A DNA stretch of 64,000 bases, from the NCBI GenBank assembly GCA_963796685.1, contig CAWCMR010000022.1, forward strand, positions 96,001-160,000, read 5' to 3'. Origin of the DNA: an uncultured delta proteobacterium (GTDB taxonomy: Bacteria > Myxococcota_A > Polyangia > Fen-1088). The position numbers were made by a program, and so were the translations under genes. Below, one piece after another: positions 61,173-62,929 of the stretch (the stretch's first letter is position 1; the number at the start of each line of letters is the position of its first letter). Under the pieces are notes generated by a model, which saw only the letters and a program-made list of their open reading frames with translations, did no database searches and had not been told where the DNA came from.

Positions 61173-61260
61173 TCGGCAATGAATTCAGCAGCTTGCGTCG
61201 TGAATCGCGATTGTTCCTGGCTTGTTCAATCAAGGTGACGTAGGTTTCCCATCAAATCGA
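61149..61260 (-). promoter_or_regulatory. sigma54 cassette 8, adjacent to the activator gene
   Basis: CGGCCCGAAACCTGCT (61164-61149); IHF-like ATTCAGCAGCTTG 61183-61195; TCAAGGTGA 61230-61238 and TCAAATCGA 61252-61260. Confidence 0.85.
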
Positions 61261-61276
61261 AGGACTGGTGGTGGTG

Positions 61277-62929
61277 ATGAGGGCAGGCGATCTAGACCAT
61301 AAGGAATTGCTCGAGCTCGACCCGGAAGGAGGCGTGATTCGCTTCGCCGGACAGCGAGCGCTGCTGCTCGATGCAGTGGCCATGGGACTTCTGCGCAAAT
61401 ACCTCGTGGAAAACTTTGGTGCCACCGCGGCGCGCACCGTGCTGACTCAATTCGGCTTTGCCCACGGTTGGCGCATGGCCGAGGCCATGCAGGCCGAATT
61501 CCAGTGGGAGAACAAGGCGGAGTGGCAGCTCGCCGGTACCCGCATCCACACCCTCGAGGGTCTCTTTCGCTTGGAGTTGGAGAGCCAGGGACCTCTTTCC
61601 AAGCCGGGCATGACGCTCACGGCGTCCTACGAAGCGGAGCAACATCTCCTGCACTTCGGTCGCTCGGACGTGCCCGCGTGCTGGACCATTTGTGGCCTGA
61701 CCAGCGGCTACCTCAGCAAGAGCTCGGGGAAGAGATCTACGTCCTCGAAGACCGCTGTATGGGCAAGGGCGATGTGGCCTGCCACCTCATCGGCCGGACG
61801 CGTGCGGAGTGGGGTGACGAGCACGCGGAGGAGCTGCGTTTCTTCGAGGCGAAGCGGCTCGAGGACTGCCTCGACGTTTCGCTCCAGCGGGTCACGGAGA
61901 CGCTCAAGGTCGCCGAACAGAAGCTGCGCACCCACCGTCGCGCTCTGGTTCGCGTGGCCCGCGATGTCGAGGAACCGCTCGGGATCGTCGCCAAGAGCGT
62001 CGCTATGGCGCAGTTGGTGGATTTGGCGCGCCGGGTGGCCAAAGTCGATTCGACCGTTCTCATCACCGGGGAGAGCGGATCGGGCAAGGAGCGGGTTGCC
62101 CGACTGGTGCACGAAGAGTCCACGCGCGCCGCGGGGCCGTTCGTCGCCGTCAACTGCGGCGCCATCACCGAAACCCTGCTCGAAAGCGAGCTCTTCGGTC
62201 ACGCCCGCGGTGCGTTCACGGGCGCCACGCAAGATCGGCCGGGCCTGTTCGAGTCGGCCAACAGCGGGACGCTGCTGCTCGACGAAGTCGGCGAGGTCTC
62301 GCCGGGCATGCAGGTGAAGCTCTTGCGCGCGCTGCAAGAGCGGGAGATCCGGCGCGTGGGCGAGAACAAGAGTCGCAAGGTCGACGTGCGCGTGGTGGCT
62401 GCCACCAACCGCGACCTCGCCCACGGCGTGGCAGGCGGCAGTTTCCGCCAGGATCTCTACTATCGGCTCAAGGTCGTCGAGCTGCACGTCCCACCCCTGC
62501 GCGAGCGCAGAGACGACATCTTGCCCCTCGGCCGCGTGCTGCTCGCGAGCTCGGCACTGCAGATGAAGCGCAAGATCGCGGGGCTTGCCCCGGACGCCGC
62601 CGACCAGCTTCTGCGCTACGAGTGGCCGGGGAACGTGCGCGAGCTGGAAAACGCCATGGAGCGGGCCGTCGCGCTCGCTCGCGGAACCCGAGTCGAGCTC
62701 GAGGATCTGCCGGAGGAGATCCGCCAGGCACTGACGGCCCCCGTGGCCACCAAGGGGAAGGTGCGGCCGCTCGAAGAGGTCGAGAAGGAGTACATCCTCG
62801 CGGCCTTGGAGCTGCAATGACGGCAACCAGACCCACACCGCCCAGCAGCTCCACATCGGCTCGGCGACGCTCTACCGCAAGCTCAAGAGCTACGGTTTGA
62901 TCGGCAAGAAGCACGCACTCGCGAGCTAA
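61277..62929 (+). pseudogene. sigma54 enhancer-binding protein (XylR-N, V4R, AAA+, Fis HTH) with two single-base frameshifts (~61733, ~62816)
   Basis: [41 protein letters not shown]...[30 protein letters not shown]; shifted tail [23 protein letters not shown]. Confidence 0.9.

Follow-up and report, generated by a model that had tools for sequence, protein, structure and literature searches.

Within the 64,000-nucleotide stretch of DNA analyzed here (the window; positions 96001–160000 of contig C22), a gene at 61277–62929 on the plus strand encodes a predicted sigma-54 activator of the XylR/DmpR class, in other words an enhancer-binding protein of bacteria (bEBP) with the domain order XylR_N–V4R–AAA+ (carrying GAFTGA)–Fis-type HTH_8. 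We propose that this XylR-class protein activates about ten sigma-54 promoters of stress genes and represses its own gene, a reading to which we assign a probability of roughly 0.65. It is built on protein domains, DNA sites, sigma-54 promoters, their fixed geometry and their conservation and co-occurrence across genomes, all of which were computed here. The source genome (G000) comprises 7.3 Mb in 26 contigs (88.6% complete, 6.5% contamination), among them C22 and C9, and related genomes are labelled G001, G002 and so on; positions without a prefix refer to the window.

In the assembly, this one gene is distributed over three reading frames by two single-base indels at approximately 61728 and 62815 (Table 1). 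Pfam assigns XylR_N (2e-29) within 61268–61720, Sigma54_activat (2.2e-70) and AAA_lid_14 (3.3e-24) within 61717–62817, and HTH_8 (1.9e-06) within 62816–62926, the last in a frame other than that of the AAA+ domain owing to the extra base at 62815. The translation shows Walker A, GAFTGA and Walker B (LLLDEVGE) motifs, and the ATG at 61277 is preceded by an AAGGA ribosome-binding site at 61260–61264. The ortholog in G002 is intact (550 amino acids, aa) and contains XylR_N, V4R (31.7 bits against a cut-off of 31), Sigma54_activat, AAA_lid_14 and HTH_8 (5.3e-13); in the window, V4R is split by the first frameshift and escapes detection. Pfam scans of the window gene and of the intact ortholog found no receiver domain. 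The genome contains a single rpoN copy and 45 Sigma54_activat matches corresponding to about 42 bEBP genes, of which one match falls inside the window (C22:157984–158484, window 61984–62484) and the next lies at C22:168114, 8 kb past the window end. A sequence-based note that preceded this work (hereafter the original prediction) had described a XylR-N/V4R bEBP without receiver domain, the only bEBP in the window, with its ATG 17 bp from tandem DNA sites; all three statements hold, the second site ending at 61260.

These sites, TCAAGGTGA at 61230–61238 and TCAAATCGA at 61252–61260, form an upstream activating sequence (UAS) and recur in a defined arrangement. The bare 9-mer TCA-N3-YGA is common in the window (51 occurrences on the plus and 45 on the minus strand); pairs spaced by exactly 22 bp number seven on the plus strand (9086, 11988, 19852, 21459, 26861, 56256 and 61230) and 17 genome-wide, where they are concentrated on C22, and for five of the seven the gene faced lies on the minus strand. 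Read from a minus-strand alignment of ten genome copies, each cassette consists of two sites (TCGATTTGAtgg ... TCAYCTTGAtkg), about 34 unconserved nucleotides, a box GCAAG-N6-TGAAnTCA and, 12–16 nt past this box, a promoter TGGCCCG-N4-CTGCT with the exact GG-N10-GC spacing of a sigma-54 −24/−12 element. The distance between site pair and promoter is 64–67 nt in all cassettes, a tightness that face-of-helix looping would need, and the presence of sigma-54 promoters behind the sites requires a bEBP. The aligned cassettes share the box between UAS and promoter as TTCAR-N4-TTR; the complement of GCAAG-N6-TGAAnTCA fits WATCAA-N4-TTR, which we take to be the IHF consensus, and the genome encodes seven Bac_DNA_binding (HU/IHF family) proteins. 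The strict promoter pattern TGGCNCG-N4-YTGCW has 64 matches in the 7.3 Mb, of which eight fall into C22's island region (seven inside the window, one just beyond it); the promoter of the bEBP-adjacent cassette, cassette 8, is a CGG variant of it. A composite pattern, in which the 22-bp site pair is followed by GGY-N8-TGC at 62–70 nt, yielded 10 matches in this genome, nine of which we judge to be real, and its reversed control yielded 0 in all 61 genomes searched. By these patterns, seven cassettes of the window are complete and a further one has a second site that is degenerate; genome-wide, nine are complete.

The tandem TCA-N3-YGA sites of the original prediction are thus real, and two features had been overlooked: Each pair has a −24/−12 element 64–67 nt away, and the cassettes fire on the minus strand, so that the bEBP gene is divergent from, and not downstream of, cassette 8. 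Several other interpretations of the elements were discarded. Plus-strand readings as sigma-70, sigma-32, ECF, CtsR or HAIR-type sites did not fit; a sigma-54 promoter within TGAATTCA-N5-CTTGC was off by one in its spacing, the true −24/−12 element being found on the minus strand; and the conserved ATGGCCCGAAnnCTGCTG, considered as a mini open reading frame (ORF; M-A-R-x-L-L), is actually the sigma-54 promoter. On contig C9, a palindromic TCA-N3-TGA pair (24372–24402) fits the pattern on both strands, and its minus-strand composite match may be due to chance; it lies about 0.6 kb upstream of an ORF that is ferritin/Dps-like by sequence resemblance.

The genes behind the cassettes (Table 1) seem, judged by their families, to constitute a general stress response and not a catabolic pathway. 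Downstream of the OmpA-like gene of cassette 3 follow ice-binding-like, OmpA/DUF4398, AI-2E and YtxH genes, which may possibly belong to the same transcript. In related genomes, the first genes behind cassettes encode GrpE, CsbD, BrkB/YihY, DUF1003 and SPFH proteins, VIT1, a Zn-dependent alcohol dehydrogenase, a quinol NO reductase, a sigma-70-family factor, two RelA/SpoT-domain proteins, a GGDEF protein, a WrbA-like flavodoxin, an Fe/Mn superoxide dismutase, GvpL/F and B12-radical-SAM proteins. A Pfam scan of 43 window ORFs revealed no gene for aromatic catabolism, as the original prediction had remarked. The target of cassette 7 is a 123-aa protein (56493–56864, minus strand) with Sigma70_r4 as its sole domain, which could act within the regulon as a small regulator, either anti-sigma-like or DNA-binding.

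The bEBP gene and the cassettes are linked across genomes. Among the 61 related genomes we defined a close ortholog by at least 74% identity, which separates 19 genomes with from 42 without; in 30 loci from this set, the starts of almost all close orthologs are immediately preceded by the site pair, together with a divergent sigma-54 promoter. A second set comprised 80 loci from named genomes, 77 of them with at least 200 nt of upstream sequence: The exact pair is present at 44 of the 77, in several phyla, and ends 8–21 nt before the start codon (mode 16), with 26 of the 44 also fitting the strict promoter spacing. The other 33 loci mostly show variants with one mismatch or a one-base change in spacing, and about five show nothing. 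The UAS consensus over 46 orthologous loci reads TCAAnATGAaGTAcc...TCCtTCAaTTcGAAGGAg, its last letters being the ribosome-binding site. The composite cassette occurs in 17 of the 61 genomes, namely in 16 of the 19 with and 1 of the 42 without a close ortholog, and the positives span five genera in three families. The co-occurrence of orthologs and motif that the original prediction proposed to examine is therefore found, and motif-bearing genomes do not usually lack the bEBP (16 of 17 have a close ortholog). Its candidate master regulator of the stress island is supported by architecture and co-occurrence; DNA binding, effector and autoregulation stay at the level of prediction.

Beyond this set, orthologs whose sensor domain is 78–95% identical are present in records with the titles Polyangia, Kofleriaceae, Anaeromyxobacter, Holophagaceae, Thermoanaerobaculia, Gemmatimonadaceae and Planctomycetota, as well as in the cultured strains Geothrix limicola Red804 and Geothrix campi SG10, which makes the system directly testable. 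All five Acidobacteriota records, which were picked for having an ortholog, show the cassette pattern (6, 3, 3, 1 and 2 matches; control 0), and three of these 15 matches look like chance (L139, L146 and L136). In G. campi, an ORF that is DUF5670-like by sequence resemblance lies 1.1 kb below the bEBP-adjacent cassette. The sensor is 78–82% identical between metagenome-assembled genomes labelled Myxococcota, Acidobacteriota, Gemmatimonadota and Planctomycetota (for example L067, L073, L101 and L104), far above the expectation for vertical descent, which suggests horizontal spread, mis-binned contigs or both. More distant XylR_N paralogs (36–57% identity; L024–L029, L004 and L032) likewise start next to a pair of ATCA-N3-TGAT-type sites and have a divergent sigma-54 promoter, which in L024–L026 faces an ORF resembling YceI by its N-terminal sequence (assessed by eye); the self-adjacent divergent layout seems to be general for this clade.

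The position of the sites relative to the bEBP gene bears on its own expression. Exclusively in bEBP-adjacent cassettes (n = 46), TGGC is conserved about 12 nt upstream of site 1 and TA-N3-T between the sites, the conserved positions being −12 (tGgc) and +11/+12 (TA). With the inferred sigma-70-type promoter of the gene (Table 1), site 1 would occupy the spacer and site 2 the expected transcription start, immediately ahead of the ribosome-binding site, so that a bound activator would block its own promoter. XylR is reported to lower its own expression at the divergent Pr/Ps region (PMC3469447). For binding, use of IHF and autorepression we infer the following course: The protein would bind the paired TCA-N3-TGA sites, and an effector would relieve the sensor domain, which would permit assembly and contact with the sigma-54 RNA polymerase held at the −24/−12 promoter 64–67 nt away, across an IHF-like bend. 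About ten promoters of chaperonin, envelope and general-stress genes would open in this manner. The bound protein would also repress its own sigma-70 promoter from sites lying between the inferred −35 element and the ribosome-binding site, as XylR does at Pr/Ps.

The surroundings of the window copy are rearranged. In G001, in G002 and on C9, the bEBP gene is directly divergent from an operon starting with a 61-aa gene, which in G001 and G002 is followed by DUF5670. In the window, this operon sits below the cassette at 56256, and the bEBP gene stands beside a 140-bp copy of that regulatory region (56170–56307 versus 61144–61283, 92% identical). The 4.9 kb between the duplicates (56290–61143) contain the Sigma70_r4 gene of cassette 7, a hybrid histidine kinase remnant, an intact CheB-CheR-PAS fusion and a truncated PAS gene (Table 1); this block is paralogous (84–85% at the nucleotide level) to C9:17.8–23.4 kb. 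Cassette 8 has, as its sequence indicates, lost its target operon, of which a 38-bp DUF5670 relic would be the leftover; presumably it retains its sites and the control of the bEBP gene, without a target of its own.

For the placement of the breaks we aligned the window gene with the C9 paralog and the orthologs of three same-genus genomes. At frameshift 1, the window reads GGGG versus GGGCG in G001 and G002, and G010 and C9 differ there yet have the extra base; a public contig of 151 nt with zero other differences reads five G and thereby restores the frame, as a single contig with a depth of about 2. The extra C of frameshift 2 is missing in three contigs of relatives (one each in X1, X5 and X6; 90–94% alike, hence not the same strain). 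These contigs were recovered from a set of four public runs; among the public sequencing runs matched against the window, none exceeded 14% of its words, the value of the best run, and no RNA run was listed. The inspection of reads that the original prediction had called for can thus be answered in part: Break 1 is contradicted by one identical contig, break 2 by relatives only. Every copy with a broken reading frame carries private, differing 1-nt indels (window, C9, G001 and G010, from genomes of 9–30 contigs), and the gene is unbroken in G002 (40 contigs). Among close orthologs, short open frames are confined to genomes of at most 80 contigs, bar one that is truncated by a contig end, and orthologs from genomes of at least 220 contigs have open frames of 559–745 aa. 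At least two further bEBP genes in this assembly are broken inside the AAA+ domain. Compared with G002 over the three segments (547 codons), 117 codons differ synonymously versus 21 nonsynonymously, which indicates purifying selection in all three segments and no relaxation past either break. Because of the private indels, their restriction to genomes of few contigs, the split bEBP genes, the unrelaxed selection and the G5 contig, we regard both frameshifts as most likely errors of the assembly consensus and the gene as probably intact in the organism.

The alternative that fares best among its rivals is nevertheless that the window copy has truly become a pseudogene, within a rearranged segment undergoing decay, with the 84%-identical C9 paralog or another copy working the cassettes. 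Two frameshifts within 1.65 kb, the second outside any homopolymer, would be in line with decay, as would the neighboring remnants (the kinase with its internal deletion, the truncated PAS gene and the DUF5670 relic) and a cassette 8 devoid of a target; moreover, C9 has the same sites, and its operon still begins with the 61-aa gene. These points are opposed by the G5 run in an otherwise identical contig, by the private single-base indels of the C9, G001 and G010 copies and the at least two split bEBP genes, a pattern that points to assembly error, by nonsynonymous changes that are not in excess past either break, and by the C9 copy itself, which has a 1-nt insertion near codon 11. We consider a pseudogene unlikely on this balance. 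Single-base indels also split several conserved genes elsewhere in this genome, among them the two other bEBP genes and probably a PEP-utilizing enzyme gene on C9 (27069–28277 / 26487–26918), and an indel seems to occur about once in every several kb of the assembly; at such a rate, frameshifts in this genome should, without reads, not be taken as pseudogenes.

A second alternative assigns the sites to a different protein, either another bEBP or a repressor, so that the XylR-type gene would merely travel with one cassette. Its appeal lies in the roughly 42 bEBPs encoded in the genome, in a 9-bp palindrome that is short for a Fis-type HTH dimer, and in the similar ATCA-N3-TGAT sites of the distant XylR_N paralogs, with which cross-talk would be possible. 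It has to contend, however, with the adjacency of sites and start codon, which is preserved between Myxococcota and Acidobacteriota with a changing divergent partner (61-aa gene in 7 and DUF5670 in 10 of 80 flanks), and with the co-occurrence of 16 of 19 versus 1 of 42; we therefore hold another binder to be distinctly improbable. The same flank counts rule out an obligatory divergent partner of the PspA kind. The notion that the shared element is merely a locally duplicated intergenic segment spread over the island without common regulation can draw on the 92% identity of the two regulatory regions and on the extended flanks common to three window copies (26861, 56256 and 61230), and deserves hardly any credence, because the other cassettes share nothing but functional blocks (sites, box and −24/−12 element) at fixed spacing with unrelated sequence in between, and the same blocks recur ahead of other genes in other genera and phyla.

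Several observations weigh against our proposal that the XylR-class protein activates the stress promoters and represses itself. A consensus promoter scanner finds no sigma-70 promoter upstream of the bEBP gene. The contig that restores frame 1 is a single one of low depth, frameshift 2 is judged from relatives only, and the surrounding 5 kb hold truly decayed genes (the kinase with its 1.3-kb internal deletion and the PAS fragment). The C9 paralog shares both recognition helix and sites and could act in place of the window copy. The cassette-positive genomes are kin and not independent samples, for which reason no statistic is attached to the co-occurrence, and this co-occurrence was scored for the present bEBP alone in a genome with some 42. 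Finally, G007, G025 and G034 have the ortholog without a cassette of the exact pattern, and G018 has a cassette with only a 53%-identical paralog, its match being identical to one in G003.

With regard to the signal, the closest solved relatives of the sensor are DmpR/CapR (PDB 6iy8), MopR (5kbe) and PoxR (5fru); the match to 6iy8 has an E-value of 4.3e-85 over residues 11–468, and of about 2e-14 for the sensor alone. The V4R cysteines are indeed retained, as originally stated, and align with the C...E-x2-C-x7-C stretch of DmpR/CapR 6iy8, which we take to be the structural zinc site of the MopR and DmpR structures. By this analogy, a structural zinc site is a more plausible role for the cysteines than redox or metal sensing, and the redox/metal cue that the original prediction had derived from them finds no evidence in the alignment. 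For MopR, a zinc site is described, and H106 together with W134 is said there to anchor the phenol hydroxyl (PMC9556785). In the window protein, the His aligned with H106 is kept, and the W134 position is occupied by Leu in the alignments with DmpR and PoxR and gapped in the MopR alignment; of the two phenol anchors, the His is accordingly present and the Trp is not. No NCBIfam equivalog model reached its cut-off for the window protein, the best model being V4R_TF_MobR with 354.8 bits against a cut-off of 999. OrpR, an Fe-S redox bEBP, was considered as a model of Cys-based sensing and rejected, its sensor being described as a PAS domain and not V4R (PMC8359166).

The sensor is about 80% identical across phyla. 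Speculatively, the effector could be a phenolic or quinone-type stress signal, given the pirin, WrbA-like and superoxide dismutase genes in the regulon: Pirin, a WrbA-like quinone reductase, superoxide dismutase, chaperonins and envelope proteins would suit defense against such compounds. A bolder version, which we put forward tentatively and with more doubt than confidence, is that the XylR-like activator and sigma-54 together form a master general-stress switch in soil and peat Myxococcota and Acidobacteriota, whose sensor would read a common small hydrophobic or phenolic/quinone-type signal and not a growth substrate; such a switch would add a further general-stress architecture beside RpoS, sigma-B and EcfG/PhyR.

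Compared with known systems, the window protein is, by its sequence, a XylR/DmpR-like member of the bEBP family that would fall outside the aromatic-catabolic subgroup with respect to ligand anchor, catabolic target and curated model. XylR of the TOL plasmid pWW0 (Pseudomonas putida) is alike in its XylR_N-V4R-AAA+-HTH architecture, in sigma-54 promoters with upstream sites and in a regulator gene divergent from a sigma-54 target; XylR promoters also use IHF. It drives toluene/xylene catabolic operons from two promoters, whereas about ten promoters of chaperonin, envelope and stress genes are concerned here, and the site sequence differs from what we presume to be the XylR site, a motif that a full-text search found in no paper. 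The phenol sensors DmpR/CapR, MopR and PoxR have the Cys/Glu/Cys/Cys stretch and the H106-equivalent His in common with the window protein; the Trp anchor is replaced by Leu here, and the regulon is not catabolic. PspF is a sigma-54 activator divergent from the psp envelope-stress operon; its sites lie in the intergenic region between the two, and autorepression is expected. It lacks a sensor domain, and PspA holds it in check. Here, in contrast, a ligand-type sensor is present and a conserved partner gene was not found (61-aa gene in 7 of 80 flanks). The sigma-B (Bacillus), RpoS and EcfG/PhyR regulons overlap in content (CsbD, YtxH, YflT, PRC-barrel, superoxide dismutase, WrbA-like flavodoxin, OmpA-like, GrpE/GroESL and small alarmone synthetases), but they rely on an alternative sigma factor with partner switching, whereas sigma-54 and an ATP-driven activator with a small-molecule-type sensor are used here. 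For Bacteroidota and Planctomycetota, groES and grpE are reported or predicted to be sigma-54-dependent (PMC12316311); in the part of that paper considered, neither a V4R-type activator nor a site is given for these genes, and the term Acidobacteriota has 0 occurrences. A full-text literature search, with subscription-only papers outside its scope, found no description of a XylR-type activator of a stress regulon.

XylR/DmpR-type regulators are textbook switches of pollutant catabolism and are widely used as biosensors. In the present system, the same design of sensor and motor appears to be wired to promoters of chaperonin, outer-membrane, osmoprotectant-glucan and classic general-stress genes, and at least two phyla of soil bacteria that are abundant but little studied share this wiring. 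If our proposal is true, it would name a regulator of the stress response in lineages with none known, let regulons be predicted from a defined DNA site and promoter geometry, and let a wider signal range be expected for V4R sensors.

Table 1. Features of the bEBP gene, its regulatory region, the cassettes and the adjoining block (window coordinates).
Feature	Position	Strand	Basis or remarks
bEBP segment 1: XylR_N and first half of V4R	61277–61728	+	Pfam XylR_N; N-terminus is that of the intact 550-aa G002 ortholog
bEBP segment 2: remaining V4R, linker, AAA+ sigma-54 activation domain, lid	61729–62814	+	Pfam, motifs
bEBP segment 3: Fis-type HTH_8 and TAA stop	62816–62929	+	Pfam HTH_8 1.9e-06
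Frameshift 1: one base missing after 61728, G4 run	61726–61729	+	Alignment; public contig
Frameshift 2: one extra C	62815	+	Missing from four aligned relatives and three related-organism contigs
Inferred sigma-70-type promoter of bEBP gene	61218–61246	+	−35 TGGCTT (61218–61223), −10 TAGGTT (61241–61246)
UAS: two 9-bp sites, 22 bp start to start	61230–61260	.	Pattern search, alignments
IHF-like box TGAATTCAGCAGCTTGC between UAS and promoter	61180–61196	.	All aligned cassettes have the box
Sigma-54 promoter of cassette 8 CGGCCCGAAACCTGCT, GG-N10-GC, directed away from bEBP	61149–61164	-	Alignment; CGG variant of the strict pattern
Cassette 1	9004–9116	-	sll1863-family gene (8693–9046), 2888-aa GH94 glucan-synthase-like gene (2–8668)
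Cassette 2	11906–12018	-	groES, groEL, pirin gene
Cassette 3	19769–19882	-	OmpA-like gene (18574–19746)
Cassette 4	21377–21489	-	Bac_transf sugar transferase gene (19951–21360)
Cassette 5	26781–26891	-	PRC-barrel gene, DUF3417 alpha-glucan phosphorylase gene, YflT-like gene
Cassette with pair at 56256	56170–56307	.	61-aa gene (55954–56139), DUF5670 gene (55792–55941), sll1863-family gene (55278–55763)
Cassette 7	56919–57031	-	Sigma-54 promoter 56919–56934; one exact site (57001–57009), degenerate second site
Hybrid histidine kinase remnant, two frames	56955–57754		About 1.3 kb deleted versus C9 copy
Intact 869-aa CheB-CheR-PAS fusion	57693–60302	-	
Truncated PAS gene	60450–61172		
38-bp remnant of DUF5670 small-membrane-protein gene	61115–61152	-	blastn 87% to 55873–55910

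Further observations concern mobile elements and the region between the cassettes. The window contains a DDE_5 transposase gene (29813–31231, minus strand). C9 has four frames that each run over 509 codons from stop to stop and agree in their statistics (15766–17292, 30851–32377, 35280–36806 and 42436–43962); they look like copies of one insertion sequence element, one of them having been translated, and one of the four interrupts the PRC-barrel gene of the bEBP-divergent operon. The plus-strand segment 32219–55268 of the window has no cassettes and contains co-oriented carbohydrate-reserve and ion genes: These encode 6PGDH-like, isoamylase-like and HAD proteins, acetate kinase, a PRC-barrel protein, phosphoketolase, an MFS sugar transporter, two P-type ATPases, transaldolase, a DUF2254 protein and an M90 peptidase, and the block resembles a survival pathway that leads from glycogen to acetyl phosphate, located next to the stress island. 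Within it, a 1164-aa ORF (40940–44434, plus strand) combines class-I fructose-bisphosphate aldolase, glucodextranase-N and GH15 glucoamylase domains, which would represent an unusual fusion, unless an assembly indel has joined two genes.

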